Shown here piece by piece: positions 1 to 55,645 of a DNA stretch of 55,645 bases. Every line of letters starts with the position of its first letter. Position 1 is the stretch's first letter. Both the position numbers and the translations under genes were made by a program. The stretch is taken from the IMG/VR virus record IMGVR_UViG_3300012948_000295, positions 1 to 55,645 of that record, one strand, 5' to 3'. The notes under the pieces were generated by a model. It did not search any database. It saw nothing but the letters and a program-made list of their open reading frames with translations, and had not been told where the DNA came from. Source of the stretch: a virus (taxonomy: Duplodnaviria > Caudoviricetes).

Positions 1-123
1 AAGCAACTGAACGTGCCCCCAACGATTGAGAAGGACGCGCACGGCAAAGACCCGTTTGTGACAATACTGCTTGAAAAGAATCTGTCGTTTTACCGTACCC
101 CAAAGATTGTGAAATAGAGGAGA
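1..123. repeat. Terminal direct repeat (circular assembly overlap), copy 1
   Basis: Identical to 55523-55645; contains the 3' end of trbI. Confidence 0.97.
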
Positions 124-128
124 GCCGC

Positions 129-212
129 ATGTTGGCATTGATCATCCTGGTAGCATTCGCTGTCAGCCTTGGCCTTGCCTGTGGCTGGCTCCTGGGTAAA
201 TTCAATCTCTAA
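129..212 (+). CDS. 27-aa hydrophobic peptide between trbI and trbG
   Basis: MLALIILVAFAVSLGLACGWLLGKFNL; GAGGAG upstream; stop overlaps the AAGGAG RBS of the next gene. Confidence 0.45.
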   Translation: MLALIILVAFAVSLGLACGWLLGKFNL

Positions 213-223
213 GGAGACCCCCT

Positions 224-925
224 ATGCATCGCTTCCTGATATTTGCTCTGGCTGTGCCCTTAAGCGCATGTGCTCTCATCCCCAAAGAGGAGATACCCAC
301 CCAACCACCCACACAGGAGAGAGAAAACGTACCCCAGGTAACGCTTGCAGATTTGTTACCGTCTCCCGCACCTATAGAGTGCGTAAACGTGGTCCAGCTT
401 CCAGCCCTGGCAGAGCAACCCCAGCAGGCGAAGAAAGCCACACGAGGGGAGGCGAAGGCTACCCCTGTGGTCTTCAAAGCCGAGAGGCAACCCTCAGCCA
501 CCCAGATCGTCACCACAGCCCAGAAAGACGCCCTGGTGCAACCAGATACGAGTACGTACTTTGGTAAAAGCTTGAACGCCCGATACGTCTATCAGGCAGG
601 CAAAAATTACGAGATTCGGCTTGGCCCTGACGTGACCACAAGCATAACGTTTCCCCCCAAAGAGACACTGTCAATTGGTCTGGCACTGCGGCAAGACGAG
701 TTTTTACACGCGGAAAAAGTTGTAGGGACTGACGAGGCGAAACACGTTGTGGCGATTATTGCCCCGCAGAAGAACGATCAAGGCGAATATCCCAAGGGAA
801 CATACGATGTATCTCTCTTAACCGACGTAGGGCATGAATACCGCTTGCGGCTGATTGTGGGCAAGAGCGAAGAAGCCATGCGAGCAGTCATCTTTGAGAT
901 GCCGACCATGCACGAGGAGAAATAG
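224..925 (+). CDS. trbG: TrbG/VirB9-like T4SS core subunit, lipoprotein, short
   Basis: Lipobox LSAC; YVYQAGKNYEIRLGPDVTTSITFPPKETL resembles the VirB9/TrbG N-domain; follows trbI on the circle. Confidence 0.75.
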   Translation: MHRFLIFALAVPLSACALIPKEEIPTQPPTQERENVPQVTLADLLPSPAPIECVNVVQLPALAEQPQQAKKATRGEAKATPVVFKAERQPSATQIVTTAQKDALVQPDTSTYFGKSLNARYVYQAGKNYEIRLGPDVTTSITFPPKETLSIGLALRQDEFLHAEKVVGTDEAKHVVAIIAPQKNDQGEYPKGTYDVSLLTDVGHEYRLRLIVGKSEEAMRAVIFEMPTMHEEK

Positions 926-927
926 GT

Positions 928-3326: not shown

Positions 3327-4379
3327 TCACTCCCTCCGATAGCGGCGCTGGTGCCGCCGCGGGGTATCCGTGGGCACGAGAAGAAAGGCATGGGGCTCTC
3401 CATTCAGAGTTCCCGTGCCCACAATGCGCCCAGTCTCACTGATGCCCACGGCTATTTCGAGCAGCCAGTCCCCCGTAGGAATCAGGGTATTGAGATCAAC
3501 AAAACGGTCATACTGATGGCGCAGAGCCCGAGCGCAGCAAATCCCAGGAGGAAGCGCCATGAAGCCCACCGCCACACCGGCGCTATTGACGGCGGTAAGA
3601 ACTGTTGCGTCCTGGCCAGGGATAATACCCAATTCCTCCAGTCCATCCGTCGGCGTCCAGCGAAAAGCCCCACTATCAAGTTCCCCGACCACTTCCCCGC
3701 TGTCACTGAGACCCAGGGCATTGCTATGCACCAAAGCCTCTGGAGTCAAGTCTACTGGCGCACTGCCATCTGCTGGCCACAGCGTGGCATGGATGCCAAA
3801 GCCTGCCAGCATGGATTGGCCTACTTTGGTGCCCGTCTGATTGATGGCCGTGATCGAGCCACGCACCCCGCCCAGGGTAGGCCGGGTTTGCGGACCCCCG
3901 CCAGCACGGAGCCAGAGGCAAGGAACTGGTTCGCCAAGAGCCTGCTCACAGGCGCCCACAATTTCTGTGCCATTGACTGCCGCGGCCGTAGAGGTCAGGG
4001 TGGGATCACTGTTCAGCGTGCCTAGATCAGTGAGGGTATTACTCGTCAGATCAAGAAGCAGGGCATGAGTCTGCAAGGCCCCTGGCCCGGTACTGCCCAC
4101 ACCCACGGCTACGGTGCCATCACCCCCGAAAAGTTCACTGGAAAATCCGCCTGGCAACACACCACTGAGGCGCGCCGGTTGGCCTTGTTGGACAAGAACC
4201 CCCTGATCGCCCAGTTTGCCCACCACGAGAGGCGGGTCCACATGGGTCACCAGGTGCAAGAGCCGCACCTGCGCCCCCAAGTCCACCACAGTATATTCAA
4301 TAGGGCCAGCCTGGACCTGGCCTATGATGAACCCGAAGATCAGCAGGGGCAGACTCCCTCTGCGAATGTAGCAGTGCAT
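3327..4379 (-). CDS. Secreted HAF-repeat extracellular protein
   Basis: Signal peptide; DLGTL, AINQTGTKVG, GAFRW, DLNTLIP..GISETGRIVG..HAFLL repeats. Confidence 0.85.
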   Translation of the reverse strand: MHCYIRRGSLPLLIFGFIIGQVQAGPIEYTVVDLGAQVRLLHLVTHVDPPLVVGKLGDQGVLVQQGQPARLSGVLPGGFSSELFGGDGTVAVGVGSTGPGALQTHALLLDLTSNTLTDLGTLNSDPTLTSTAAAVNGTEIVGACEQALGEPVPCLWLRAGGGPQTRPTLGGVRGSITAINQTGTKVGQSMLAGFGIHATLWPADGSAPVDLTPEALVHSNALGLSDSGEVVGELDSGAFRWTPTDGLEELGIIPGQDATVLTAVNSAGVAVGFMALPPGICCARALRHQYDRFVDLNTLIPTGDWLLEIAVGISETGRIVGTGTLNGEPHAFLLVPTDTPRRHQRRYRRE

Positions 4380-4439
4380 TGCATCTCCTTTTCCTATGCT
4401 CTGTACTCTCTGGTTCGCTTCTGACGAGAAAGGATTGCC

Positions 4440-4868
4440 ATGATACCACGCTGGGTCTTTGTTGACGAGCAGCGGTCACGGCGGGCGCGGCGGGCGCGCT
4501 GGTCCTGGGATGCCAAGTCCCAGGCCATGCGCAGACTGCGCCTCGCTCTACGTGCCTGTGGCGTGCAGCAGCCCATGCTGCTGCTGTACCTCTGGCGCGA
4601 CGACGGGACCCCTGACACCTTTGTGGCCATTCAACTGCGCCTGGGCCACGCCCTAGCGGGCTGGCAATTGGTGGGCCTGGGCACGAAGGTGCAGTACGAA
4701 CTGGCGCGGCTAGGACTGCCCTACCAAGCTATGATCAGTCCGACCACCAGAGGCCATATGCGTGACCAGGCCCGATACAGGGCCCATGTGGCTTCAGTTC
4801 TGGGTCTTACGGCAGCTTATGCTGTGGCAAGCCCGAAAGGTCCACATCCCCACCCAAACGCCAGTTGA
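4440..4868 (+). CDS. Hypothetical protein
   Basis: 142-aa ORF with AAGGA RBS; no recognisable motif. Confidence 0.4.
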   Translation: MIPRWVFVDEQRSRRARRARWSWDAKSQAMRRLRLALRACGVQQPMLLLYLWRDDGTPDTFVAIQLRLGHALAGWQLVGLGTKVQYELARLGLPYQAMISPTTRGHMRDQARYRAHVASVLGLTAAYAVASPKGPHPHPNAS

Positions 4869-5046
4869 TGCAGTCATGCAGAGCGGCAGTACCTGTGACA
4901 GTAACGGTATAGCGCAAGCCAAAAGGCAACATGTTCACGGACACAATACACGCAGAGACATGCGCTTCTTCGAGCACACGCGCGTAATGGGGCATGGTCC
5001 AGCAGCCGCCCAGGCTCAGCATACCCAGGAGCAGGAGCCAGCGCAT
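4807..5046 (-). CDS. Small lipoprotein, last gene of the virion operon
   Basis: MRWLLLLGMLSLGGC lipobox; directly follows the 5051 gene. Confidence 0.6.
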   Translation of the reverse strand: MRWLLLLGMLSLGGCWTMPHYARVLEEAHVSACIVSVNMLPFGLRYTVTVTGTAALHDCINWRLGGDVDLSGLPQHKLP

Positions 5047-5050
5047 GCCC

Positions 5051-7723
5051 CTACCTCCGCCGCAGGTTTGGCGCACTCTGCCAAGGATTAACCAGCCGCA
5101 GTGCTCCCGGCGGCGGGGGCGCAGCCACGACAAACTCAAACGCGCCGGCATCATAGCCACTGCCCTGTGGACGTGTATTCCCCTCAAAATCAAGGGGCAC
5201 TGCAGCGAGTGTCACCCCAATATCCAAGGCCGGGCTATTGCTTTGCAAGTGAAAGTCGCCCGTCGCGGCATTCACAAACTGGGGATTGCCGACCACCGCG
5301 CACCCGGTACCAGCGGCAGTACACACATTCCCGGCAAAGGTTGGGCTTGGGGAGGCATTACTGATCCCCCCCGTCGTGGCCACAATGTTATTTTGTGCAC
5401 TGACCCCAGTAATATCTGCGTCGAATTGCAGACCCGCAGTGGTTAGGTTGGCAATCGTATTGTTGAAAATCTGGGCGCTATTTTCGCCTTGCTGAAGGTG
5501 CAGGCCGCTACCGTCGAGGATATTGTTCATCGCCAGGAGACCCGTGCCTGACAAGGCCTCAATAGCCCACTGTGGGGTGCCAGCCGCCGCATGGATGCGG
5601 TTACTATCAATGGTAGTGTTGCTATTAAAGGCGACCCCAGCATTACTTGAGCTGATCACAATGCCCCGCCCAGTAAACCCCGACAGGTCATTATGCTGCA
5701 CAAAGGAGCCAGCTACCTCCATAATACGCAAGAGCCCGACATTCTGGGTGTTGTTTTGCAAGGTATTGCTGACCAGTTGGTGATTCGGACTCTCTACCTG
5801 GATAATCGCCCGCCCACTATTTTTGAGCGTCATATCCTGCAATTTAATATGGTGTGAGGCATTAAAGAAATAGACGACGTGGTCGCCGGTGCCACCGGCA
5901 TCAATCGTTATACCCTGGAATACGATATACTGACTGGTGCTGGCCTGGAGCACCACGGCGACCTGCGTACTGGAGAGGGTAGGCGCCCACGTCACCACCT
6001 CGCCACTGTAGCGGCTAATGGTGGTAGGAGCGGCAAAGCTAGAGCCCCCAGGGATGGCAAAGACGGTATCATCGACAATCTCAGTATACGTGCCCGCACG
6101 GTAGAAGAAAGTGGAGCCGCCCAGAGCACACTGAACGGCAGTGGCCAGAGTCGCCAGCGGGGTTGCTGGCGCCGTCGCTTGCGCACAGGTTCGCGTATCA
6201 TCGCCCGTCACCGCACCACTGCTGGGTCCAATATAGTAGGTGCCCAGGGCTGGAGTTCGAGAAATGGCTGAGTAGGTCACAGTCAGGGTATCGGTAGCCG
6301 TCTGGCTCTGGGCATCGCTGGCCGTGACAGTAATGGCATTGGAGCCACTGGTGAGCGGGATGCTGGCGACACTCCAGGTGACCGACGTACCACTGCTGCC
6401 ACAACTAGGACAGGAAACGGTAGGGGTCCCACAGGAGGGCGAGCAGCTCACGCTAACGCTTGTCACCCCAACATCATCTGTCGCCGTCCCAGCCAGGGTA
6501 GTGAGGGGGGTAGTTGAGGTACCATATGTTGTACCACTCGTTGGTGCGGTGATGGTAATGGCCGGGGGGGCGCTGGTGCTGGTGCCACCATACTCATAGG
6601 CCCCAGCATCATAGCAACAGCCCACCGGACGTGCAGCGCCGTCCATGTCAATATTATAGGGAGAGCCCAAGGTTGTGCCCTGATCAATGGCATTCGTTGC
6701 ACTAGAGGTAAGGTGGAAATCCTGAGCTCCGGCATTGACAAATGCCACGCTGGTGGTAACTGTGTTGGCGACAGAGGCCCCGGCATCATTTTGCACGTTG
6801 GGCGAGTTGTTGTTGCTAATCACATTGCGTGCGACACTAGAACTGGACGTTCCTGACTGAAAGTAGAGCCCGCCAGCGCTGTTGCCATAAATGGTGAGAC
6901 TGTAATACGTCGAGGGGTACCACTGGCTCCAGATGCCGTTGCCCTGGTTGCCCCAGAAGATCGAATTGTAGGCGGTCACAGAGGTGGGAACGGTCATGCC
7001 CCCAGAAAAATTGTCATGGCATACCGTGTTGCGTACAATGTTGTTGGCGCCATAGAACTGTAACCCCCAGCCGTTGTTGTGATCCGACTCGACGTTAATG
7101 ACACTATTGCCATCACTATAGTCATAGATACCGTGACAATACCCAGGCTGTGCCGTGGTGCCGTGACACCCAGTACTGCCCTGGCCGCTGTGGTGAATAT
7201 GGCTATTTTTAACCGTATTGTTACCCGCGCCGCAGCCAACGGCATTGGAATCACAAAACATGGCAATGCCTTGATTCCGGGCATAGGCGATTTCCACATC
7301 GTCAACAGTTGAGCCCGAGTTGGCGATGATACGCATGCCATAGCTAAAGACCTCACTGGCTCCATCACAGGTAAGGGATTTGATCGTGACGTTCGTGGTA
7401 CCACTCAGAATTTCGAAACAGGGATTGTTACTCCCGGCTGTAGGACGAATAATCGTTCCAGCCCTGGACTCGCCCTGCACAGTGGTACCCGACTTGGGGA
7501 AGAAGTTATTCTGGTCATAGGTGCCGGCGTGGATGAGGACCGTATCGCCACTCGTCGAGTTGTTAATTGCCTGGGTGATGCTGGAGCAGGGCGAGCCAGA
7601 AGTGCAGGCCGTGCCGCCTCCGCCAGACGCAACAACATGATAGGTTGCCGCCACCGCCAGGGAAGGGAGTAGCAGGACCAGGAAGAAAAGCCAACAGCGC
7701 GGCCAGGTCACAGAGCAAGACAT
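5051..7723 (-). CDS. Secreted multidomain protein: beta-helix, Ig-like, beta-helix, with choice-of-anchor-Q-like ends
   Basis: Signal peptide; GDTVLIHAGTY; DFHL..S.A.D.G...D.GA.E motif twice; PPAITITAPT..GSNAITVTASDA Ig-like domain. Confidence 0.85.
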   Translation of the reverse strand: MSCSVTWPRCWLFFLVLLLPSLAVAATYHVVASGGGGTACTSGSPCSSITQAINNSTSGDTVLIHAGTYDQNNFFPKSGTTVQGESRAGTIIRPTAGSNNPCFEILSGTTNVTIKSLTCDGASEVFSYGMRIIANSGSTVDDVEIAYARNQGIAMFCDSNAVGCGAGNNTVKNSHIHHSGQGSTGCHGTTAQPGYCHGIYDYSDGNSVINVESDHNNGWGLQFYGANNIVRNTVCHDNFSGGMTVPTSVTAYNSIFWGNQGNGIWSQWYPSTYYSLTIYGNSAGGLYFQSGTSSSSVARNVISNNNSPNVQNDAGASVANTVTTSVAFVNAGAQDFHLTSSATNAIDQGTTLGSPYNIDMDGAARPVGCCYDAGAYEYGGTSTSAPPAITITAPTSGTTYGTSTTPLTTLAGTATDDVGVTSVSVSCSPSCGTPTVSCPSCGSSGTSVTWSVASIPLTSGSNAITVTASDAQSQTATDTLTVTYSAISRTPALGTYYIGPSSGAVTGDDTRTCAQATAPATPLATLATAVQCALGGSTFFYRAGTYTEIVDDTVFAIPGGSSFAAPTTISRYSGEVVTWAPTLSSTQVAVVLQASTSQYIVFQGITIDAGGTGDHVVYFFNASHHIKLQDMTLKNSGRAIIQVESPNHQLVSNTLQNNTQNVGLLRIMEVAGSFVQHNDLSGFTGRGIVISSSNAGVAFNSNTTIDSNRIHAAAGTPQWAIEALSGTGLLAMNNILDGSGLHLQQGENSAQIFNNTIANLTTAGLQFDADITGVSAQNNIVATTGGISNASPSPTFAGNVCTAAGTGCAVVGNPQFVNAATGDFHLQSNSPALDIGVTLAAVPLDFEGNTRPQGSGYDAGAFEFVVAAPPPPGALRLVNPWQSAPNLRRR

Positions 7724-7731
7724 AGGCACTC

Positions 7732-8628
7732 CTATGGCCGCGCCCTTGGCGGCTTGAAAAAGAGCAGAAATTGGGAATTGCCAGGAGACACGGCTTGGAA
7801 CAGCACAGCTCGCAGGCCAGGAAAGACAAGCATTCCAGGGTCTCCCAGGCGTGAGAGGGTATAAACCTCCCAGATCTCTTTACCAGGGAGCAAGCGATTC
7901 CAAATTCGCACATCATCCATGGCGCCGTGAAAGGCCCGTGAAAATGACTCATTGCTACCAATGTATAGTGTACTATTGTTATCACTGCTGGCAGTCCCTA
8001 CTGGGGTCGTATTCACCGTGACACTCCCGGCATTGAAGCCATTGACATAGAATATCGGGAGGTTGCTGGTGCTGGTACGGTCATAACTCATACAGATGTG
8101 GGTCCAGGTATTCAGGGGAAAGAGACCCGCGACGTTCCAGGATCCCCCAGTAGTAGAAAAGTCATAATTGAGTTGCACCCCATTGCCATTATAAAAGAGC
8201 ATCCAGCCCGTGTTGTCGAACTTGTTAATAATGCGACCCGCACTGCTGCCCCCATAATCAATGGGATTGGTCCAGACGCAGACAGTTTTCTGATCCTGGT
8301 CTGTCACCCCGGAAGGCTTCCCCATATTAACAATATCATCGACCCCATCAAAGTTTAGTTGCCCCACGCCGCCTGGCCGCGTTGAGCCCGACCAGCCCGA
8401 GGCGCTCCCCACGGCCATATTCGTCAGCGTCCCAGGAAAGCCCCCGACCAGATCATAGAGGGTGAGGCTCCCGGTCCCCCCAGGAATGCCCCGCCACCAG
8501 CCCTGCAAACGCCGCAGGAGGGGATGATCCTTGGCGACCTGGCTAAATTGCTGCGTCTCGCCAAGCGTCACCCCGAGCACAGCAATAGCCAGCACTAGCG
8601 CGACACTGAGGCGACGAGCGAACGACAT
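7732..8628 (-). CDS. LamG/concanavalin-like domain protein with signal peptide
   Basis: LNFDGVDD, NTWTHIC, FYVNG, FHGAMDDVRIWNR. Confidence 0.85.
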   Translation of the reverse strand: MSFARRLSVALVLAIAVLGVTLGETQQFSQVAKDHPLLRRLQGWWRGIPGGTGSLTLYDLVGGFPGTLTNMAVGSASGWSGSTRPGGVGQLNFDGVDDIVNMGKPSGVTDQDQKTVCVWTNPIDYGGSSAGRIINKFDNTGWMLFYNGNGVQLNYDFSTTGGSWNVAGLFPLNTWTHICMSYDRTSTSNLPIFYVNGFNAGSVTVNTTPVGTASSDNNSTLYIGSNESFSRAFHGAMDDVRIWNRLLPGKEIWEVYTLSRLGDPGMLVFPGLRAVLFQAVSPGNSQFLLFFKPPRARP

Positions 8629-8641
8629 GTGTGTGGTCCCT

Positions 8642-9202
8642 TCAGGTATTCTGCATCTGTATGGGCATAGGCGTAAACACACACTTATGCTTGGTGGTCG
8701 AGGTCTCTACGGGTAAGGCGGAGCCATTAAAGAACCCCAGGGCAAAATACCGGGCAGGCAGGTAGATATTACGAAAGGTGGCGATCATGGTGGTATTCGT
8801 GGTAACCTGATCCACCACGAGGGTGCCAATCCAAGTGAGGTTGCGGCGCTTATCCGACGTGGCCCACGCGGCATTGGCGGTTACACCGCCATCCAGCGTA
8901 GCGCCATCCTGCGACGTGACAACGTAATATTCCAGACCCTGGCCAACCACATTGGTGCCAGTGAGGGAAATCGAGCACTGTGCCTGGAATAACGAGACAT
9001 GCGCTCCCGCACCCAGATCGGACAGAGCTGAGGTCTGTCCGCCCCCACTCGCCTTGGCACTGAAGGCCATGGTGACCGTACCACCCGAATCAGCAAAGGT
9101 AATCGCGGTGCCTGGCAGGGTCCACTGGGTAGAGGTAGCCCAGGCCACCATCGGCGACAAGAAGAGGGCAAAGGCCAGAGCAAGGGCAAGGTGTTTACGC
9201 AT
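8642..9202 (-). CDS. Tail-cluster beta-sandwich protein with signal peptide
   Basis: MRKHLALALAFALFLSPMVAWA; position in tail cluster. Confidence 0.65.
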   Translation of the reverse strand: MRKHLALALAFALFLSPMVAWATSTQWTLPGTAITFADSGGTVTMAFSAKASGGGQTSALSDLGAGAHVSLFQAQCSISLTGTNVVGQGLEYYVVTSQDGATLDGGVTANAAWATSDKRRNLTWIGTLVVDQVTTNTTMIATFRNIYLPARYFALGFFNGSALPVETSTTKHKCVFTPMPIQMQNT

Positions 9203-9211
9203 GGTCAATCC

Positions 9212-9811
9212 CTATGGCAACGGCACGTTGTCTATAGCGTGGGCAACGTCCAGGCTACTGATGAGTCCTTCATACCCAAGATTCGCTGGCGTCGCTGTCG
9301 AACCATTGCCCGAGCCCTGGATAATCAAGAGGGCCTCGCCCCGCAGTGCCTGACGCCTGGACAGCGAGAGCAAAAAGGCTTGTTGCGCAGCCGGTGCCCC
9401 TTGCCCACTAAAAATCTTGGTAAAGGCAGCCCGTGTCTGGCTGAGACTGGGGTTGACGATGCCGGGATGCATCATGGTATTCCAGGCATCGCGTTCCTGC
9501 ACGGATTGCTGAAGAAACGTAGTCCAGTTCCAGGTTGAACTATCCGGACTGACGGCCTCATAGATTTCTTTTTCGGGCATACTGGAACGCCACACCCAAA
9601 AAGCCGGGCTGGCCAGCGCGTTATATTTCGCCGCAAGACTGGCCCAATTTTTGGCGGCAACGTCAGCCGCCATTTCCGCCTGATTGGTCACCAGGATATC
9701 GTTGCGCAGGACATCATACTGCGCCGGCGTGAGACCGACGGCCCAGACATGCAGAGGCACAGCGAGCAGCAGGAGAAGCCCTATGACCTGGGGAAGCTTT
9801 GTACCATTCAT
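9212..9811 (-). CDS. Conserved phage tail-cluster protein with signal peptide
   Basis: LTPAQY..L..DI, YNALASPAFWVWRS, GSTATPANLGYEG; hydrophobic N-terminus ending VWA. Confidence 0.65.
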   Translation of the reverse strand: MNGTKLPQVIGLLLLLAVPLHVWAVGLTPAQYDVLRNDILVTNQAEMAADVAAKNWASLAAKYNALASPAFWVWRSSMPEKEIYEAVSPDSSTWNWTTFLQQSVQERDAWNTMMHPGIVNPSLSQTRAAFTKIFSGQGAPAAQQAFLLSLSRRQALRGEALLIIQGSGNGSTATPANLGYEGLISSLDVAHAIDNVPLP

Positions 9812-9818
9812 GTCATCC

Positions 9819-12800
9819 TCAATTCGTTGCAACGATTTGGGTTTTGGTCAGAACGCTCGAATACCGTAAACCAACCATCATCCATGTACTGACACCCGCA
9901 GGGCACGATACAGGGAGGGGCACATTGGGCGATGCAATATAGTTTGATTCCCAGACGATGCTTTGCGCATTGGTGCAGAGGAAGAGAAAAACCACCATAT
10001 CCCCGTCATTTTGATTCACCGTAATATTTTTGATCGTCAGTGTGCCACTTGCACCCGTCATTTGCATTTGACACTGGTCGCTTGTGTCCCAAGAACAGAG
10101 GAAGTTGACGCTACTGGTAAGAGTGGTAATGCGGTTCTGAGGTGCCCGTGTCGTCGCCATAAGACAGTATTTGCCGCTGGTGCTATTGAAGCTATAGAGA
10201 AAATGATTGTACGTAATATTGTCGCCGGTAATGCCTGTAGGCAGGGCAAGGCCACATTCGTTACTGTAGAGCGTGTCCCAGGTGATAGCCACAGGGGTGG
10301 CCCCTTTAAAGACAAGTTCGAGGCTTTGCTGATCCGTAGGCGTCCCAATCGGATTGGCGACGAAAGTGGCGACAGCCAGATCATAGCGGTAAGCCACGTC
10401 CGTCGTATCAATGTTGGGGGTGACAGTCGTCCTGGTCCCGAGCTGGACTACACGCGGAACAATCTCTTTGTTTGTGAGCACCGCCACTGCGCTATTCTTG
10501 GTCGCGTCACTCGTATTATCGACGTTCCCCAGGCCTACATCACTCTTAGTCGGCTGCGCCGTCGAAAGCACCCCTGTATCACTTAAGCCCGTGACAAACT
10601 GTGACGTCGCCGGGGTCAGCGAGCGCACCGTATGCGTGGCAATCCCGGCATCATCGAGCAGTTCCAGCACTTTAGCCGTACTATCGACGTAAAGCGTGGC
10701 TTTCCCGCTTGCTGGCGTTCCTGGCTGGACCATAGGCGTCAACGTGAGACGCTGGGAGGGTGTGGCATCGCTAAAACACGTCACAGTGACGCACGTTCCC
10801 ACGGTGTTTACAGCCGGAGGCGATCCGGCTAAATCCCCGTAGCTGAGCTGACTGACTGTGAACGCACCGCCTACGCTATTTTGGCGCACCACAAACGAGG
10901 CCCCCCCCGACGTACTAAAATCAGTGGTGCCCGCAGGAAACGTAATGGTATTCGCCCCAGAGACAGCAGGAGACTTCAGCGTCACTGTTCCCGACGTTGC
11001 GCCCGAGAGCAGGAGTTGCTTGACCGTCTGGCCTGTGGCACTCGTAAACACGTTGGCCGCTGTCAGATCTGCAGCATTGGTTACTTGCGCCGCCGTATAA
11101 TCCCCGCTGGCCGCTGTGACCGCGCCAGTACGGGTAAACACACTCGACACAGCACCTGTAGGAGGCGTGCCTGTCAGCTCACTATAGTCCAGCGTGGCAA
11201 CGGTAATCGCTCCCCCAGCAGTCGATTGGCGTAGAATTCTTCCAGCCCCACCCGTAGACGACAGATCAGTGGTGCCCGCTGGTAGTGTCAGCGTATTACT
11301 CCCCGCCACTGCTGCAGATTTGACCGTCAGTGATCCCGACGTGGATCCAGGCAAGATAAGCTGTTTCATCGACTGGCCAGCAGCACTCGTAAACACGTTT
11401 GCTGCCGTCAAGTCGGCAGCATTGGTCACGAGGGCCGCTGTATAGTCTCCTGTTTGTGCAGTAATAGCGCCGGTGCGGCCAAACACGCTGGCAACGGCAC
11501 CTGTAGGAGGCGTGCCTGTCAGCTCGCTATAGTCCAGTGTCGCAACGGTAATTGCTCCACCCGCAGTGGACTGGCGTAACAGTCTTCCAGGCCCACCCGT
11601 AGATGACAGGTCGGTTGTACCCGCTGGCAGAGTAAGCGTGTTACTCCCCGCCACTGCTGCAGATTTGACCGTCAGTGATCCCGACGTAGCCCCTGGCAGG
11701 ATAAGCTGTTTCATCGACTGGCCAGAGCCAGACGTAAAGATATTGGCGATCGTCACGTCAGCAGCGTTGGTCACCTGGCTTGCTGTATAGTCGCCTGTTT
11801 GCGCCACAACCGTTCCTGTGCGTCCAAAAACAGAACCCACTGATCCACTGGGGGGGACTCCTGTAATTTCGCTATAGTCGAGGGTTGAAACCGTAAACGG
11901 CCCCCCCACCGTCGCTTGCCTCACAACTTTTCCGGGCCCCCCGGTTCCCGAAAAATCAGTCGTGGCCGCAGGCAGTGTCAAAGTTTGCGCTCCACCCCCA
12001 GCAGGAATAAGCACCGTCAGCGTATTGGGCGCCGTGCCGAGAATAAGCCTACGCATCGTCTGGCCTGTGGCACTCGTAAACACGTTGGCCGCTGTCAGGT
12101 CCGCAGCATTAGTCACTTGTGCCGCCGTGTAGTCACCGTTGGTCGCAACCACAGCCCCTGTGCGACTAAAGACGCTCGCAACGGGCGCAGCAGGAGGTGT
12201 CCCGGTGAGTTCGCTATAGTCGAGCGTGCCCACAGTCAAGGGTGCTCCTGTGGCGACTTGCTTGACCACGCGGCCAACTCCCCCCGTCGTCGTGAAATCA
12301 GTACTCCCGGCTGGCAGCGTGAGCGTGCTAGCGCCTGCGACTGCTGCAGATTTGACAGTTAACGATCCAGACGTCGCCCCTGGCAAGATAAGTTGCTTCA
12401 TGCTTTGCCCAGTGGCACTACTAAACACGTTAGCCGCTGTCACGTCGGCAGCATTCGTCACTTGACTGGCGCTATAATCCCCGTTCGATGCGGCGACAAT
12501 GCCGGTGCGGCCAAACACACTCGCCACCGCACCAGCCGGAGGCGTCCCCGTCAGATCGCTATAGTCAAGCTGGCTGACTGTGAGTGCGCCTCCTACGCTG
12601 TTTTGCCGCACGACAAACGACGTGCCGCCCGACGTGCTGAAATCCGTGGTCCCGGCGGGCAGTGTGAGAGACTGCGCACCACCCGTGCCAGGCACTTGCA
12701 GCGTCACAGTATTAGGCGCCGTGCCTATCGTGAGCTTACGCACCGTTTGCCCGGTCGCGTTGGTAAACGTATTAGCGGCTGTGGTATCGGCAGCGTTCGT

Positions 12801-13300: not shown

Positions 13301-13302
13301 CG

Positions 13303-16203: not shown

Positions 16204-16224
16204 AGCCACCTCCTAAGCCGCGTT

Positions 16225-42467: not shown

Positions 42468-42475
42468 TTTTATTC

Positions 42476-42504: not shown

Positions 42505-42595
42505 ATCTCAACTGCGCATGATGGCCATGCAGCAGGCACAACCAGTCAGGCGCCAACCTGGCATTCAATGACAACCAGGGACAAGGAACACACAC

Positions 42596-43165: not shown

Positions 43166-43177
43166 GAGATAACGCGC

Positions 43178-43390
43178 ATGAAGGCCCGACGCCTGAAGCC
43201 CCAGACTGATGCCTATGTCCGCCTCGATCTGGGGCATGGGTGTCTGCTCATTCTGCTCTTTGACGAGTATAAACGGGCACTGTGGCGCGGCAAGATGGAG
43301 AAACGCGCTGCCCGCCGTGCCCTCGCTTCCCAACGCACCATGGCCAGAGCGGAGGCGTTCGGCCTCCGCTGGCTGGAGGAAAGACCCTGA
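43178..43390 (+). CDS. Hypothetical protein
   Basis: AGGAG RBS; stop overlaps next start. Confidence 0.55.
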   Translation: MKARRLKPQTDAYVRLDLGHGCLLILLFDEYKRALWRGKMEKRAARRALASQRTMARAEAFGLRWLEERP

Positions 43391-43971: not shown

Positions 43972-44359
43972 ACACTGTAAGCACGGGGAAGGATGCATCC
44001 TTCCCCGAAAGGCACGCATGCACACTGTCACGCATACCCCAGGATGCTATACTGCACAAACTTTGATTCTCGTTATACAGCTAGTATTCACGCGGCGCTA
44101 TCCCAACTACTGCCGCACGTGCGATGGGTGGGGCACGCTGCCCGAGTTGTACGACCCATCACCAGACGGCGTGAGCCTCAGCCCTGGATTTTGTGTTATG
44201 CACGCCCCATGCTACGCCTGTGAAGGAAGCTGCGGTATCCCAACCTGTAGCCTGTGTGGCCAGATTATGAGCAGTGAGAGATATCGGCTGTGTACGTGCC
44301 CCCTGAATATGGGCTATCCCGTAACGCCCCCCTGTGAGTGCTGGGAAGAAGAACTATGA
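43949..44359 (+). CDS. Cys-rich putative zinc-binding protein
   Basis: CRTCDGWG, CYAC, CSLCG motifs. Confidence 0.55.
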   Translation: MATRLCPKHCKHGEGCILPRKARMHTVTHTPGCYTAQTLILVIQLVFTRRYPNYCRTCDGWGTLPELYDPSPDGVSLSPGFCVMHAPCYACEGSCGIPTCSLCGQIMSSERYRLCTCPLNMGYPVTPPCECWEEEL

Positions 44360-44583
44360 CACTGCCCTACGACCCGATGGATCATGTCTATGATGAGCTG
44401 CTCTTAAGTGACACGTTTCACAAGCCCTGGCACCAGTGGAGCGACGAAGAAAAAACCCGCTACCGCGCCTATCTCTACCGGCATGATCGCTTAACACTGG
44501 AGAGAAGCGTGTGGGGCAAGCCTGAATGCCAGGGGAGACTTGCACACCTGTGGACATGGCTGAAAGCCTGGAGACGTAGGTGA
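44356..44583 (+). CDS. Hypothetical protein
   Basis: ATGA overlap with the upstream gene. Confidence 0.5.
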   Translation: MTLPYDPMDHVYDELLLSDTFHKPWHQWSDEEKTRYRAYLYRHDRLTLERSVWGKPECQGRLAHLWTWLKAWRRR

Positions 44584-44629
44584 CTATGCCTGACACCTGA
44601 GCTTGCAATAAATATGTAACCTTTTTTGC

Positions 44630-44658
44630 TTGCACCTGAGATCTAGGTAGGCTACACT
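44630..44658 (+). promoter_or_regulatory. Sigma70-type promoter upstream of the sigma-factor gene
   Basis: TTGCAC-17nt-TACACT. Confidence 0.6.
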
Positions 44659-44749
44659 GAGAGGCAGGATACATGAACTGGTGAGAGGGAAAACGCGGCT
44701 AACACGGCCCCTCTCACCATAGCAGAAATCCCTGGAAAAGGATTTTGCG

Positions 44750-45264
44750 ATGAGTAGTATACCACATCTGGCGTATGATTCCCCCTGCTCCGCTATTCCC
44801 CTTGAAGATATTCAGAAAGCCCTGACCCAGGCCAGGCGCCTGGCACGGCACCAGTGGCGACACGATCAGCATAGTGTGGACCTCGCCGAGTACGAAGACG
44901 TTGCCGCCGAAGCGCTTAGCCGCTGCCTGGAGCGCTTCGAGCCCTCCAAGGCCCGTTTCACACCTACTGTGCGCACCGCATACGCGGCGCCCTGCTCGAC
45001 GCCAAAGCCGCCTATCTGCGCTGGCGTACCCTGCCACCGTCCACTCCTGTAGGCGTACAAGCCGACCGTGAACTCCTCCCCTGGCTGGCCACGGTATCCC
45101 CCTGGTTGCACCGCTACGCGACCCTCGCGCTTGATGGCTACACCCAACGCGACATTGCTGCTCATCTGGGCATTACAGAGAGTGCCGTCTCAAAGCGCCT
45201 CGCCTGGTGGAGAGCCAGGCTGTCTGGGGCAACACCTGTGCAGGGCACAAAGGGGCAGGGATAA
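44750..45264 (+). pseudogene. Sigma70-family sigma factor with a 1-nt frameshift at ~44961
   Basis: ERFEPSKARF / TYCAHRIRGALLD (region 2) and GYTQRDIAAHLGITESAVSKRL (region 4) lie in two frames. Confidence 0.8.
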
Positions 45265-45821
45265 TGCGAAAACTCCCGGAAAATGAGTGGAAATTATTTC
45301 ACGGTGATTGTGTCTATGTTATCCAGATGGAGGGTCATCCCTGGCTCAAAATCGGCTATACCAGGTCCGTCCTTGATCGGATATCTGGTATGCAGGTCTC
45401 ATGTCCGCTCCCGCTTACCCTCCTCAAAGTCTATGCCTGTGGTGACGGTCATAGACTTGAACAGCATCTTCACCGTTTACTGGCCAAGGACCGCCGGCGC
45501 GGTGAGTGGTTTGAGACCACCGTTGAGGCGATTGACGCCGCCTTTGCGACTGTGGCAGGACATGAGGGTGATGTTACTTTTGGCCTTCTTCCCCAGACTA
45601 TAGCACGACTCAAGGAACGCCAGGCACAACTCGAGGAGAAGAGACAAAAACGCCAGGCACAACTCGAGGAGAAGAGACAACTTAGCCTCAAAATGGACCT
45701 TGATCGTTACTGGGGCTCACAACCATCTATCTCCTGGCGTGAACGACGCGCGGCTTGGTTTGCATGGGGTAGACATCTGCTCTTTCGTGCAGGTCTTTTA
45801 CCTATCCCTCATAAGTACTAA
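45264..45821 (+). CDS. T5orf172/GIY-YIG-like domain protein
   Basis: VYVIQ..KIGYT..R...Q..LEQHLH..RGEWF; contains a 33-nt duplication at 45616-45680. Confidence 0.88.
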   Translation: MRKLPENEWKLFHGDCVYVIQMEGHPWLKIGYTRSVLDRISGMQVSCPLPLTLLKVYACGDGHRLEQHLHRLLAKDRRRGEWFETTVEAIDAAFATVAGHEGDVTFGLLPQTIARLKERQAQLEEKRQKRQAQLEEKRQLSLKMDLDRYWGSQPSISWRERRAAWFAWGRHLLFRAGLLPIPHKY

Positions 45822-45838: not shown

Positions 45839-45871
45839 CTGGCGCGGTAGGAGTATCTCTGCGAGATACTC
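45839..45871 (-). other. Candidate MOBQ oriT
   Basis: GAGTATCTC-GCA-GAGATACTC hairpin then CTACCGCG/CC, 20 nt upstream of the relaxase start. Confidence 0.55.
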
Positions 45872-48883: not shown

Positions 48884-49291
48884 ATGTTCGACCTGAGTTT
48901 TCTTACGAGTGTTGGCAGTGCCCTGGCTGGCACCGGAACCGAAGCAGACGGCGCGATGAGTCGTAGTATGGGCCTGATGGTCGGCTTAGGCGTTATGGGC
49001 ATTGGCGGCAGCATTGTTTTTGCCGGGATTAAGCACGCCCACAACAGCGAGCATATTACGGCCACAACCGCAACTGCAATTGGCACTGGCGCCACGATGG
49101 TGGCAGGTGGGGCAGGGCTTGCCGCCTATCTCACTGGACACGCCATGGGCGCCACGGGGGCGAACGCCGCAGTGTCTGTTGTTGGCGCAGCACTGAGTGA
49201 ACTCTTGAACCCGATTGGCCCTCTCTCCGTCATGCTTCTCTATCGCTACTACCGCGTGCGGCAGTCGCTGAGTAGCCATGCCGCGCGCTAG
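48884..49291 (+). CDS. Putative pilin, TrbC/VirB2 position
   Basis: Gly/Ala-rich hydrophobic segments; directly upstream of trbD; AGGAG RBS. Confidence 0.55.
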   Translation: MFDLSFLTSVGSALAGTGTEADGAMSRSMGLMVGLGVMGIGGSIVFAGIKHAHNSEHITATTATAIGTGATMVAGGAGLAAYLTGHAMGATGANAAVSVVGAALSELLNPIGPLSVMLLYRYYRVRQSLSSHAAR

Positions 49292-49553
49292 GACCCAAAC
49301 AGGGAGCGTCTTGCCTGGCTGGCAGGCGCCCTGCTACCAGGCCACAAGTGGACCCATCATCATGGGTGGGGTACCGCAGATGCTCTTTTTTGGGCTGATT
49401 GGCGCGAGCGCACTGGGAGGCATGCTCTACCCGCGAATCCTGTGGGTGACAGGGAGCATATATCTGGCATCAGTGATTGGCACGATGTGGGAACCCAACT
49501 GGTATCCCATGCTGAAAGAATATCTGGGATATGGGAGCGTGTACGAAGCATGA
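49278..49553 (+). CDS. trbD: TrbD/VirB3
   Basis: GW.AP.YQA...PI.MGGVP followed by two TM segments; upstream of VirB4. Confidence 0.8.
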   Translation: MPRARTQTGSVLPGWQAPCYQATSGPIIMGGVPQMLFFGLIGASALGGMLYPRILWVTGSIYLASVIGTMWEPNWYPMLKEYLGYGSVYEA

Positions 49554-52628: not shown

Positions 52629-52853
52629 ATGTACCGCCGTAACCGTCGCCAGATGCGTTTTGCCAGAAACCTCATGCTAGGTCGTATCCTCGCCAAGATG
52701 CGGTTCTTGTGTATGGGCCTCGCTCTCATGTCGATGGTCAGCCTCACCCTCACTGGGAATCTCACCAGCGCTATCGTGATGGCCATAAGCCTCTACGTCG
52801 TGAGTAAGCTGTTCAACTATGGCCTGTACCTGCTCACAGGAGAAAGCGACTAA
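52629..52853 (+). CDS. Small membrane protein in the trb operon
   Basis: AGGAG RBS; two hydrophobic segments; coupled to trbL. Confidence 0.55.
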   Translation: MYRRNRRQMRFARNLMLGRILAKMRFLCMGLALMSMVSLTLTGNLTSAIVMAISLYVVSKLFNYGLYLLTGESD

Positions 52854-53782
52854 TGCCATTTACCGCGATACTCAACGCCTTTATTGGGAGGTTTATTGAT
52901 GCCACAGAGCTCCTTACCCCTGTGGCCTTGGGGCTCCTCACGTTCTTTCTGGCTATCGAGTTTATCCTGATTGGAATTTACTACGCGATGCACCAGGAAA
53001 TCGACGTGAAGCCACTTATCTCCAAGGTGATCGCAACCAATGTGCTCATGTGGGTGATTCTCAATTGGGCATGGCTTACCAAGCAACTGGTAAATATCTG
53101 GGTAGCGTGGGGGCTCCGGAGTAGCCAGGGCGTCATGCTCGTGAGGGACTTTACCGACCCCGACAATATCGCCAAGTTTGGCTTTGCGGCGACGGGCGTT
53201 ATTTTTCAGCACTTAAGCCAGTATAGCGGGTGGGAACAGCTCAAGAATCTGTTGGAAGTATGGCTCTCAGGAGGCGTAGCCCTGCTGGTCATTCTGTTTT
53301 ACTTCACGCTGGCCGCGTGGGCTATGGTGAGCCTCTTAGAGTTTTATATGGGCGCCGCCGCGACCACGATCTTGCTGCCTCTGGGCGTGTCAGGGCTGTT
53401 CTCGTTTGTGCCCGAGCGGGCCATAGGCCACATGATTTGTGGAGGCGTGAGACTCTTTACGCTGGCGCTTATTCTCGCCATTGCCTTGCTTTTCATGATT
53501 GAGCTGCAACTCAAAGCGCCAACGAATATCTCTATCCCCCTCATAGGCCCAAACTTCGTGCAAGCCCTCTACAGCCTGGGAGGGGCGATTGCCCTTGGTG
53601 CTCTGTGCTGGAGGGCTGGAGCGTTTAGCGCCGGCCTGATGGGAGGCTACTCTTGGATGGCGCCCCGCGACATGACGCAGCACGTGCAAAACCTTATTAC
53701 TCACGCCACAAAGTTAGGGAACGCGCTTGATGCCATGAACGAGAAGTTAGGCATGGGAGCCACACCGGGGAGAAGGATATGA
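52853..53782 (+). CDS. trbL: TrbL/VirB6
   Basis: Polytopic; DF..P..IA..G, LLEF......ILLPLG....SFV.ERAIG. Confidence 0.88.
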   Translation: MPFTAILNAFIGRFIDATELLTPVALGLLTFFLAIEFILIGIYYAMHQEIDVKPLISKVIATNVLMWVILNWAWLTKQLVNIWVAWGLRSSQGVMLVRDFTDPDNIAKFGFAATGVIFQHLSQYSGWEQLKNLLEVWLSGGVALLVILFYFTLAAWAMVSLLEFYMGAAATTILLPLGVSGLFSFVPERAIGHMICGGVRLFTLALILAIALLFMIELQLKAPTNISIPLIGPNFVQALYSLGGAIALGALCWRAGAFSAGLMGGYSWMAPRDMTQHVQNLITHATKLGNALDAMNEKLGMGATPGRRI

Positions 53783-54429
53783 ACACGTCAGAGCATGACA
53801 TCGAAATTGCAGCAACGATCCGTGATAACGAACTCGAAAGCTCTAAAACGACCATCCGTAAACAGACCTATACCCAGTGGGGGCTAACAGCCCTCCTGGC
53901 AATAGCGACCATAGGCAATATCTATCAGGGCACGCAACACCGCTGGATTATTCGCTACGTCGAAGTTGACAAAGCCAGCATGCAAGCCCGTGTCATTGAC
54001 CCCGCCGCCGAGCGTTACGAGCCCTCGCAGGCAATTGTGAAAAGCGTCCTGAGTAGCTACGTGAGAACACTCCGCTACGCCTCAGAAGATCGTCAGGCGA
54101 TGGACGACGACTTAAACGTCTTAAGGATATGCTCGACGCCTGCGGCCAGGCAGCGTATCCGCACCTATGAAACCACGCCTGATGCCCCTAAGCAACAGAG
54201 ATTCCCGAGGGAAGTGCAAATTATCAGCAAACTCGCGTTAGGCGCGCGCAGTTATACCATGCGCTGGCAGGAGTGGAAATACGGCCAGGATAAACGGCAA
54301 GATGGACCACCCACGTTTTATAGTGCCCGCCTGACGTTTGAGCGAAGAGACCCCAAAACCGAACAAGAGCTGACCAACTGTCCCACGGGCATTTTTCTGG
54401 ACGAATGGACACTAGGAAAGGATCAGTAA
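53779..54429 (+). CDS. trbF: TrbF/VirB8
   Basis: TM then YVEVD, SY..RWQE..Y, PTGIF...W. Confidence 0.85.
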   Translation: MNTSEHDIEIAATIRDNELESSKTTIRKQTYTQWGLTALLAIATIGNIYQGTQHRWIIRYVEVDKASMQARVIDPAAERYEPSQAIVKSVLSSYVRTLRYASEDRQAMDDDLNVLRICSTPAARQRIRTYETTPDAPKQQRFPREVQIISKLALGARSYTMRWQEWKYGQDKRQDGPPTFYSARLTFERRDPKTEQELTNCPTGIFLDEWTLGKDQ

Positions 54430-54430
54430 C

Positions 54431-55639
54431 ATGGCATCCCCCGAAGCAGCACCACGGCTTGCGTGGGAAATTGTGATTCCAGCAGGATTGCTTGTACTCG
54501 CCTTGATTTACGGTATCTACTGGTACGTGACTACAGTAGGCACCGCCCTCATGACGCCCCCCAAGAGTGACGACAAGACGACAGTAACTTCAACTGTGGA
54601 TGACGTGAAACCACGCGACTGGACAAGACACGGCAGCGTAGAGGAGCCAGCACAGACGACGCCAGAGATACCGAGAGGGCAAATTGTCAGCCAGGGGGTA
54701 GGGGCGGCAACGCCACCCCCTGAACCTGTCCTACTGTTGGTTGCACAACAACTCCAGGCTAACACAAAAGTCACCGAGACACAAACCGGCTTGCTGCAGC
54801 GCATGGCGCTTGCTCTTGCGAGCATGGGACAGACGCAACAAGCCCAGAAAGCCCAGATGACGCAGCAAGCCACACAGGCGTCCCATGCGACGCAGACACA
54901 ACAACCAGAGAAGCCCAGGGCAACCCCCCTGGTGTTTCTCGTCAACAACAAGTCAGACGTGATGCAGGAGCAGCAGGCCAGCCTTGAAAAAGAGAAAGAC
55001 TCACTGCTCGAACCGGCACATCAGGTACGCCCGTTTGACCGCAAGAAAGTGCTCTACCGGCGTCAACAACTGGCAGGGAGAATCTTGGATTCGATTAATA
55101 GCGACTTGCCAGGCACCGTGCGTATCGAACTGACCGTCCCTGTGTATAGCCCCTACGCCAAGGATGGCGATGCCCCTTTGCTGGATAAAGCCACAGTCAT
55201 TATTGCCCGCTACAGTGGCGAGGTGAAATACGGGCAAGTGCGCATCCCCATTCAGGTTGAAGAGGCACAGCCCCCCAACGGTGACATTATTGAAATGAAA
55301 GCGATGGGAGGCGACCAGGACGGACGCCCCGGTGCCACAGGCACCGTCAATAATCACCTGGGAAAACTGGGGCTATCTGTGGCCATTAACGCCGTGTTGC
55401 AGCTTGGCGTCAAAGGTCTAGCAGGCACGCCCGGACAGGGCCAATACTACCAAAATCCAGTACAACAGGCGGCCCAGGAGAGCGCCAGTAGTGCAGCCCA
55501 GAGCATTAACGGCATGGCGCAAAAGCAACTGAACGTGCCCCCAACGATTGAGAAGGACGCGCACGGCAAAGACCCGTTTGTGACAATACTGCTTGAAAAG
55601 AATCTGTCGTTTTACCGTACCCCAAAGATTGTGAAATAG
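54431..55639 (+). CDS. trbI: TrbI/VirB10
   Basis: TM, INSDLPG, Y...V.YGQ.R, D.DG..G..G.VNNH, LNVPPTI. Confidence 0.92.
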   Translation: MASPEAAPRLAWEIVIPAGLLVLALIYGIYWYVTTVGTALMTPPKSDDKTTVTSTVDDVKPRDWTRHGSVEEPAQTTPEIPRGQIVSQGVGAATPPPEPVLLLVAQQLQANTKVTETQTGLLQRMALALASMGQTQQAQKAQMTQQATQASHATQTQQPEKPRATPLVFLVNNKSDVMQEQQASLEKEKDSLLEPAHQVRPFDRKKVLYRRQQLAGRILDSINSDLPGTVRIELTVPVYSPYAKDGDAPLLDKATVIIARYSGEVKYGQVRIPIQVEEAQPPNGDIIEMKAMGGDQDGRPGATGTVNNHLGKLGLSVAINAVLQLGVKGLAGTPGQGQYYQNPVQQAAQESASSAAQSINGMAQKQLNVPPTIEKDAHGKDPFVTILLEKNLSFYRTPKIVK

Positions 55640-55645
55640 AGGAGA
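55523..55645. repeat. Terminal direct repeat, copy 2
   Basis: Identical to 1-123. Confidence 0.97.

Follow-up and report, generated by a model that had tools for sequence, protein, structure and literature searches.

The window analysed here is the whole of a 55,645-nt virus record from soil (IMG/VR record IMGVR_UViG_3300012948_000295; G000 in the present analysis), in which the virion genes of a P22-type phage share one genome with a candidate origin of transfer (oriT), a MOBQ-type relaxase, a type IV coupling protein (T4CP) and a P-type type IV secretion system (T4SS). Transfer of DNA between bacteria in virus particles and transfer by conjugation are regarded as distinct routes. For the element described here, the physical linkage of the virion and conjugation gene sets and the conservation of their architecture are close to certain. 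It is probable that the window is one circular replicon of a conserved P22-type phage lineage that holds all four of these conjugative components, and the genes carried tip the balance slightly in favour of both transfer routes being functional. The furthest-reaching proposal, namely that a temperate P22-type lineage has made a relaxase-dependent P-type T4SS its second, lysis-free route of transmission and that its members are true conjugative phages, is advanced more tentatively, as a serious possibility rather than an expectation.

An end comparison showed that bases 1-123 are identical to 55523-55645, which leaves a unique length of 55,522 bases. Because this overlap sits within the 3' end of trbI, it is the mark of an assembly that closed as a circle rather than a physical terminal repeat. 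On the circle, the P22-type morphogenesis set occupies the minus strand, and the early genes followed by the conjugation genes occupy the plus strand in one unbroken run (38216 through 55645/1 to 3289), so that the conjugation genes do prolong the early-gene run, as the first-pass annotation of this DNA had proposed. The same annotation had noted a single replication protein and the absence of insertion sequences, integrase and att scars, and both points are upheld: a Pfam scan of 50 open reading frames (ORFs), alongside which PHROG and NCBIfam were also searched, revealed one replication module, a primase-helicase of the D5/NrS-1 type, and no transposase family; the integrase profile PF00589 had no match in the window and no att-like repeats were found at the module borders. 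The GC content ranges from 0.49 to 0.61 around the circle and falls in an AT-rich stretch at 37-39 kb. In tetranucleotide composition, the virion arm and the T4SS core correlate at 0.80, above every one of 85 control loci (at most 0.747 when compared with the virion arm and 0.676 with the T4SS core).

The combination of both modules recurs in other assemblies. Alignment-based scans of IMG/VR recovered G029, a circular record of 58,743 bp with a 123-bp end overlap, in which tblastn matched 20 of the 54 window proteins at 25-45% identity, with circular order and strands preserved. One strand of G029 encodes the hub, adaptor, coat, scaffold and portal; the other encodes SWIM and helix-turn-helix (HTH) proteins, homologues of the products of the genes starting at 42596 and 43282, the relaxase, the small protein upstream of the T4CP, the T4CP itself and the VirB3-like, VirB4, VirB8, VirB10 and VirB9 proteins. 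The early genes for SWIM, HTH, VRR-NUC and the 42596 and 43282 homologues stand in identical order, and a fibre N-terminus, an SLT ejection protein and a gp7-like protein converge on the T4SS. A further relative, the 29,501-bp contig G028, combines genes for T4CP, relaxase, VRR-NUC, SWIM and TerL with one for a P22 portal (PF16510, E 6e-139). Over its first 3,054 bases it overlaps, at 100% identity, the end of L032; L032 is the final 15.3 kb of a metagenome contig of 55,619 bp and encodes VirB4, VirB10, VirB9 and a beta-helix protein. Both G029 and G028 taken with L032 (G028/L032) thus hold the two modules in the same order. A tyrosine integrase (PF00589) is present once in G028 and once in G029, and because each carries one, both may be integrative; for the window, which has none, an extrachromosomal state is plausible.

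Purifying selection is evident on both sides of these genomes. Between G028/L032 and G029, dN/dS is 0.056 for TerL, 0.137 for portal and 0.077 for VirB4 (dS 0.59, 0.74 and 0.99, respectively); the relaxase, T4CP and VirB10 are more diverged in this pair and their dS is saturated. Between the window and L033, a fragment of 1.76 kb, values of 0.03 for T4CP, 0.09 for the VirB3-like protein and 0.11 for VirB4 were obtained. The ratios are accordingly far under 1 in both modules (0.03-0.137). Together with the interleaved layout in two other assemblies and the read coverage described below, they bear out the initial suggestion that the element is integrated and is neither a chance cointegrate nor a chimera. 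The identities between G028 and G029 form a mosaic, with TerL at 96%, VirB4 at 89% and portal at 85% vs T4CP at 57%, VirB10 at 61% and relaxase at 67%. G028 additionally has genes for RecT, an exonuclease and a methylase that are absent from the window.

Sequencing runs add evidence at the level of the molecule. Of the sampled words, a share of 0.92 was found in run X1, which probably represents the sample that the window came from, and a share of 0.06 in run X2, from another study. X1 contigs cover all 30 bins of the interval 35700-55645, from terL to trbI, evenly at a depth of 7-21. One variant contig in X1 contains 45217-45260, the 3' end of the sigma-like gene, followed by 21 other letters and then the window from 45840 onward. 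It replaces 45261-45839, thereby dropping exactly the T5orf172 gene, and this replaced stretch ends 2 nt from the oriT motif. Variant contig and window therefore represent two haplotypes that join the early operon to the oriT/relaxase region, and the border between early and mobilisation (MOB) genes is crossed in both. Pieces from X2 are about 90-95% alike in terL, terS, the control region, at 42.6 kb, in the mobA region and in some T4SS bins, and 16 of the 18 differences listed in terS fall on third codon positions; X2 indicates only the co-occurrence of both modules in a second study, not their linkage.

The conjugation genes were initially read as mobA-virD4-(trbC)-trbD-E-J-L-F-I-G. Pfam matches confirm the relaxase, T4CP, VirB4, VirB6, VirB8 and VirB10 of this series; trbC and trbD are assigned by position only and the VirB9 match is weak (Table 1). 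The relaxase displays an N-terminal Tyr and an HxH motif, which we take to be its catalytic residues, and matches the MobQ model NF041496 with an E-value of 6.8e-15, under the cut-off of that model; likewise, VirB4 matches the TrbE model NF010447 under its cut-off (E 2.6e-140). The T4CP has neither a membrane segment nor an N-terminal membrane domain, and the IncP TraG profile matched it only from position 109. Two explanations for this short T4CP and the TAG codon directly before it were discarded: recoding of TAG, which is the commonest stop in the window (24 of 53 ORFs), and a nonsense mutation in a once-fused T4CP gene, given that in G029 the homologue of the upstream ORF is a gene of its own and the T4CP is equally short. 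The VirB9-like, VirB3-like and VirB5-like proteins keep their positions in the relatives. Homologues of the VirB9-like protein adjoin VirB10 in G006, G029, L031 and L032, homologues of the VirB3-like protein occur in the same four, and the stretch 48884..49553, covering the pilin candidate and the VirB3-like protein, is 80% identical in L033.

Upstream of the relaxase gene, all three hybrids (the window, G029 and G028) present a GCGCG.TA motif and a perfect hairpin of 9-10 bp with a 3-nt loop. The hairpin arm sequences differ among the three, so the candidate oriT is conserved in structure rather than in letters. The hairpin and its GCGC-containing neighbour in the window presumably resemble the oriT of RSF1010. 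No such hairpin was found upstream of the relaxase of G006. The module as a whole is closest to P-type systems (the Trb and TraG proteins of IncP and Ti plasmids) combined with a MobA of the RSF1010 type (MOBQ): the best family matches are TrbE, TrbJ, TrbL, TrbI/VirB10, TraG and MobQ, and the order is Trb-like. Unlike these systems, the window is devoid of TrbB/VirB11 and of the T4CP membrane domain, and trbI precedes the trbG-like gene.

The virion genes place the window among P22-like podoviruses, as portal, coat, scaffold, terminase, connector, hub and ejection proteins were all matched and portal, coat, scaffold, adaptor, hub and ejection proteins follow the P22 order. Among the cultured phages listed, the closest portal match is that of Xanthomonas phage PBR31 (MT119766.1), with at most 41% identity. 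In contrast to P22-like podoviruses, the window is about 15 kb larger, its coat gene is split by an intron and no lysis cassette was recognised. From the XRE regulator and the AntA antirepressor that it carries, we infer a phage of the temperate type.

A group I intron divides the coat gene, which would be intact only if spliced. The full-length group I intron model RF00028 (Intron_gpI) aligns to 28737-29437 with 46.4 bits (E 2e-10), slightly short of its gathering score of 50; at gathering scores, Rfam had no match in the window. The exon 1 assigned at 29428-29523 matches the coat N-termini of six of six relatives and supplies the missing start of the coat profile, and the coat gene of G029 is uninterrupted. 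An intact set of phage genes had been claimed for the window. This stands for terS to the ejection proteins, which were matched to families (terS weakly), with the reservation that the coat requires splicing; the proposed tail genes are signal-peptide proteins (see below). The likely fibre is a 295-aa protein (16225-17112), since the large beta-helix proteins carry signal peptides; its N-terminus is kept in L013 and G029, is shared with tail proteins of related phages and is probably the conserved particle-binding part. Apart from this candidate, no tailspike without a signal peptide was recognised. Signal-peptide-like N-termini were weakly flagged in three of the 21 ORFs of 16225-37406, namely two hydrophobic N-termini and the small membrane protein at 34813-35070, and none is convincing.

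The block from 0.9 to 16.2 kb was at first taken for tail genes, an assignment that is abandoned here. A crude rule devised for the present analysis calls signal-peptide-like N-termini in 13 of the 14 ORFs between 224 and 16209, and phage tail parts are assembled in the cytoplasm. Domains in the minus-strand part (3327..16209) include beta-helix, Big_7, LamG and pectate-lyase-like domains and one protein with 345-nt repeats. Beta_helix/Big_7 proteins of the same make-up are encoded in G006, which has a T4SS and no virion genes, a homologue of the protein at 928-1473 lies beside VirB9 in L031, and none of the 26 loci of T4SS-less portal relatives matches the block. Because of the signal peptides, the kin in virion-less G006 and the absence from all 26 of those loci, 928-16209 is read as a set of exported surface or glycan-acting proteins that probably go with the T4SS and are not virion parts. 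One of these, a signal-peptide protein of 1055 aa, contains (at 10811-12824) five repeats of about 345 nt that are 60-72% alike and matches phrog_16348 in four stretches. Additionally, 1994-2252 is 68% identical to 6922-7180 on the opposite strand, and the beta-helix domain is thus common to both arms.

Phylogenies of the two modules were compared. In the VirB4 tree, the three hybrids, L031, the homologues P0002-P0009 and G006 form a clade of 13 rows with a support of 100, apart from ordinary TrbE. In the portal tree, the three hybrids and eight proteins of unknown context form a group of 11 rows with a moderate support of 87, apart from 23 IMG/VR relatives without a VirB4 match, most of whose records are fragments. 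A single origin is compatible with this tree. The closest VirB4 homologues (P0002-P0009) show 41-70% identity and the closest portals (P0045-P0052) 41-78%; TrbE of sequenced plasmids is about 31-33% identical among the 15 records listed. G006 (L111-L113) is an IMG/VR virus record rated 100% complete that looks like a conjugative plasmid. It encodes ParB, a Rep-like protein, a primase/helicase, a methyltransferase, the T4SS and large beta-helix/Big_7 proteins, and gave no match for portal, coat or integrase; its VirB4 ORF comprises 1082 aa, about 330 aa more than those of its relatives. Either the G006 line has lost virion genes or the T4SS block is exchanged between plasmids and phages.

Searches beyond these relatives were largely negative within their scope. 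None of the 26 IMG/VR portal-relative records has a VirB4 match, although just two of the 26 are at least 90% complete. A scan of IMG/VR with the single VirB4 protein returned nothing, whereas the alignment-based scans did find relatives, and a 40-base exact pattern (L032 4001-4040), which lies outside the 3,054 bases shared with G028, had no hit in IMG/VR. In GTDB genomes, the VirB4 alignment found no close relative, and the T4CP alignment found 80 loci with up to 32% identity, none of which has a match to a window virion protein in its flanks, and no host is named. Virion matches were absent within about 10 kb of 80 of 80 metagenome VirB4 loci, a weak negative in view of the portal of L032 itself lying further off. 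Among 50,697 phage records, only four unannotated faecal fragments matched VirB4.

These genes suggest how one element could travel in two ways. On the virus route, the coat message would be spliced, TerS and TerL would package DNA by a headful mechanism into a P22-type capsid, and portal, adaptor, hub, ejection proteins and a short tail fibre would complete the particle. On the conjugation route, the relaxase would nick beside the conserved hairpin upstream of its own gene, and the T4CP, which the small membrane protein encoded immediately upstream might tether to the membrane, would hand the strand to a VirB4-driven channel that operates without VirB11, such that, without lysis, a copy enters a cell in contact with the donor. 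The exported beta-helix, Ig and lectin-like proteins would belong with the T4SS and probably clear or bind surface glycans on contact.

Several observations weigh against a P22-type phage lineage with two working transfer routes, and some of them lend support to rival explanations. The probability that phage and plasmid sequences of one sample were assembled into a chimera borders on the negligible. The record is a short-read metagenome contig and the only run with a high share of its words, X1, is probably its own source, hence its coverage is not independent; the Logan contigs are short and no single one spans 35700-55645; contig placement in X1 and X2 covered that interval, with the T4SS/virion junction at 0.9-16.2 kb outside it; and G028/L032 was joined in the present analysis from two records into what appears to be one element. 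A chimera would nevertheless have to account for two other assemblies with the same layout, a variant contig that bridges the early/MOB border, even depth and matching composition. It is also highly improbable that the circle is an excised tandem of a phage and an ICE (integrative and conjugative element), or a recent cointegrate of a phage with a conjugative plasmid. Such composites exist, as far as the available text of the reports goes (PMC13651849; 10.1101/2025.03.14.643293), and the plasmid-like G006 holds the same T4SS clade, within which it is sister to G028/G029 in the VirB4 tree, so that a genome without virion genes sits inside the T4SS clade. Against the phage-lineage reading itself, the three hybrids need two changes among the labelled rows of the portal tree, and the window portal is 41% identical to that of PBR31 vs 30-32% to those of G028 and G029. 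A tandem or cointegrate is countered by the lack of an integrase in the window and the single one in each of G028 and G029, by the lack of border repeats, by the single replication module and by an interleaved order that is kept at 25-45% protein identity; moreover, dS is similar for TerL, portal and VirB4 between G028/L032 and G029, and the composition of the arms matches.

More weight attaches to explanations in which the hybrid is real and one of its machineries serves another end. It is decidedly unlikely that the T4SS is not used for self-transfer and acts in protein export, in DNA release or uptake, in mobilising other DNA or in blocking superinfection. In its favour, the T4CP is anchor-less; VirB11/TrbB (PF00437) had no match in G000 or G006, with a profile that was positive in 14 of 14 control genomes; no pilin was recognised, as no NCBIfam pilin family matched in the window; and a large set of exported proteins adjoins the T4SS. 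As a further point against the main reading, the NCBIfam names MobQ, IncP-type TraG, TrbE, TrbJ, TrbL and VirB10 all rest on scores far under the curated cut-offs, and the VirB9-like protein lies under its Pfam cut-off. This rival is countered in that the relaxase is accompanied by a conserved hairpin-plus-motif site in all three hybrids, conjugative elements show the same succession of relaxase, T4CP and VirB4, and the exported proteins bear Sec-type signals and would not need the T4SS. The alternative that the whole element is moved by conjugation only, with particles carrying partial genomes in the manner of a gene transfer agent (GTA) or with virion genes serving otherwise, is rather unlikely. 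It draws on genome size: the T4SS-less portal relatives measure 33.6-41.8 kb (15 listed records of cultured or uncultured phages, of 33.6-40.0 kb, and two closed IMG/VR relatives of 39.6 and 41.8 kb) vs 55.5-58.6 kb for the hybrids, and at 55,522 bp the window is about 15 kb above the former, lies outside the P22-like range of 34-44 kb and may be too big for a P22-size head. It also draws on the absence of recognised lysis genes, given that Pfam and PHROG scans of the window found no holin, endolysin or spanin families and that the 85-aa protein with two hydrophobic segments (34813-35070) is the sole holin-like candidate, and on the 61% completeness that CheckV assigns to G029 despite its overlapping ends. 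On the other hand, the comparison of G028 with G029 shows strong purifying selection on TerL and portal, the full head, connector, ejection and fibre set is kept in the window and in G029, and the similar sizes of the hybrids (55.5, 55.6 and 58.6 kb) fit what a packaging limit predicts, three values being too few to lean on. One more point counts against a dual-mode element, namely that the scan of 50 ORFs recognised neither a ParA/ParB partition family nor a plasmid Rep family. The reading of the window as an integrated hybrid is supported by the comparative evidence, and its function by both routes is plausible from the genes present.

Among known systems, the element is a hybrid of the phage-plasmid/ICE type. 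Phage-plasmids of the P1, N15 and SSU5 groups (PMC7969092; PMC12282955) likewise combine a full tailed-phage set with plasmid-type functions on one replicon; in comparison with them (PMC7969092), the window possesses a relaxase, a T4CP and a T4SS, and no partition or Rep family was recognised in it. The Streptomyces element pZL12 is described, in papers that cite it, as both a conjugal (Tra-type) plasmid and a lytic phage and as a singleton without close relatives (PMC3583192; PMC4487206; PMC7157519); its transfer is of the actinomycete Tra type (FtsK-like, double-strand) vs a relaxase plus T4SS in the window. According to the available text on p1002-1 of E. coli, this 'conjugative phage-plasmid' arose by fusion of a conjugative plasmid with a phage-plasmid (10.1101/2025.03.14.643293) and, like the window, unites conjugation and phage-plasmid genes on one replicon; unlike p1002-1, the layout of the window is interleaved, is kept across deep divergence and shows no parental halves. 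Phage-ICE tandems (PMC13651849) and the Hodor megaplasmids (PMC12934698) are, in the portions of these sources at hand, further cases of phage genomes that travel by a conjugation system. Hodors pair a T4SS with a surface-protein module, as the window does, at more than 300 kb vs 55-59 kb (PMC12934698). Both kinds are adjacent or nested separate elements, the tandems being presented as such 'rather than a hybrid element' (PMC13651849), whereas members of the present family have one compact genome, at most one integrase and one replication module. The term "conjugative phage-plasmids" is also mentioned in the available part of a single-cell genomics preprint. In the literature, no family of compact tailed-phage genomes that includes a relaxase/T4SS module was found, with the supplementary tables (PMC7969092 S4; 10.64898/2025.12.20.690322 Table 3) lying outside the scope of that search.

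If the proposal of true conjugative phages holds, they would exist in a plasmid-like form, represented by the window, and in integrase-bearing forms (G028/L032 and G029), and the exported glycan-acting proteins would have come with the T4SS. Entry into a host would be independent of the phage receptor, and the element could spread in dense soil biofilms with the donor not being killed. A compact genome family in which purifying selection maintains both machineries would blur the line between phages and plasmids, would free lysogenic host range from receptor specificity and would allow the trade-off of lytic burst against contact transfer to be tested inside a single element. As a practical warning, binary classifiers of viruses and plasmids file such elements as viruses, even the virion-less G006.

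Table 1. Annotated features of the window (G000), with strand and supporting evidence where given
Feature	Position	Strand	Evidence or remark
Whole record G000	1-55645		IMG/VR virus record, soil; window is the entire record
Assembly overlap	1..123	.	same as 55523-55645; within trbI 3' end
VirB9/TrbG-like outer-membrane protein, signal peptide	224-925	+	CagX, 20.9 bits, cut-off 34.2
Three signal-peptide proteins	928-1473, 1376-2533 (beta-helix), 2534-3289 (fn3-like)	+	continue T4SS operon
Ten ORFs downstream of tail-fibre gene	3327..16209	-	9 of 10 with signal-peptide-like N-termini
Probable tail fibre or spike, 295 aa	16225-17112	-	phrog_26190; no signal peptide
Three ejection / internal virion proteins	17265..23374	-	1012 aa (SLT), 623 aa, 395 aa
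Ejection protein, SLT domain	17265-20303	-	PF01464; homologues of ejection proteins in G029
Ejection protein	22187-23374	-	Pfam/PHROG set including phrog_598
gp10-like tail hub	23705-25147	-	phrog_578, E 1.6e-109
ORF without assigned function	25150-25644	-	between hub and adaptor
Adaptor, SU10/gp4-like	25518-26234	-	PF24175
Free-standing HNH endonuclease	26859-27452	-	PF13392; between coat and adaptor genes
Major capsid gene, P22 coat family, two exons	27535-29523	-	exon 1 29428-29523; exon 2 ends 27535
Coat exon 2 ORF	27535-28668	-	PF11651, E 5.9e-40, begins at profile position 41
HNH-type ORF within intron	28705-29328	-	phrog_2255
Scaffold	29538-30521	-	phrog_8865, E 7.8e-31
AntA-type antirepressor	30578-31423	-	PF08346; inside late operon
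Portal, P22-type	31586-33676	-	PF16510, E 2.4e-151
EndoVII-like gene	34234-34782		homing-endonuclease type
85-aa protein, two hydrophobic segments	34813-35070		between portal region and terL
terL	35741-37153	-	phrog_2, E 1.5e-24; no Pfam match
terS	37140-37406	-	phrog_641, E 1.7e-4, weak
Divergent control region, late/early operons	37407..38215	.	AT-rich, GC 0.49-0.50; repeats D9; role putative
Early genes	38216..45264	+	SWIM, XRE HTH, VRR-NUC, primase-helicase, unknowns, sigma-r4-like
D5/NrS-1-type primase-helicase	39852-42467	+	Pfam
T5orf172/MUG113 gene	45265..45821	+	PF13455, PF10544; present or absent between strains
oriT candidate	45842..45871	.	GCGCGGTAG motif, then perfect 9-bp inverted repeat with 3-nt loop (45851-45871)
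MOBQ-type relaxase, MobA_MobL	45892-46983	+	PF03389, 66.7 bits, cut-off 26.7
Coiled-coil protein, C-terminal membrane segment	47286-47600	+	TAG stop abuts T4CP start codon, in frame; no family match; homologue upstream of T4CP in G029
T4CP, TraG/VirD4 family	47601-48872	+	PF02534, 172.7 bits
Candidate pilin, hydrophobic, 135 aa	48884-49291	+	no family match; trbC by position only
VirB3-like protein	49278-49553	+	no family match; trbD by position only
VirB4/TrbE ATPase	49442-51703	+	PF03135, 45.8 bits, cut-off 21
Small lipoprotein	51703-51870	+	no family match
TrbJ/VirB5-like	51880-52620	+	NCBIfam E 1.9e-18, under its cut-off
TrbL/VirB6	52853-53782	+	PF04610, above cut-off
VirB8/TrbF	53779-54429	+	PF04335, above cut-off
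TrbI/VirB10	54431-55639	+	PF03743, above cut-off

Four genes of the homing-endonuclease type are scattered over the 55 kb (Table 1): two HNH genes, one EndoVII-like gene and one T5orf172 gene, one of the four being on the opposite strand within the packaging region. No tRNA genes were found in the window. Among the early genes, the sigma-like gene is distributed over two frames, 44750-45052 and 45106-45264, the latter of which encodes the region-4 HTH; this arrangement could reflect a frameshift, a pseudogene or an assembly indel. Finally, the primase-helicase gene contains at 40924-41036 a 9-nt tandem repeat (CGCCTCTCA) of about 12 units, which codes for a short peptide repeat.

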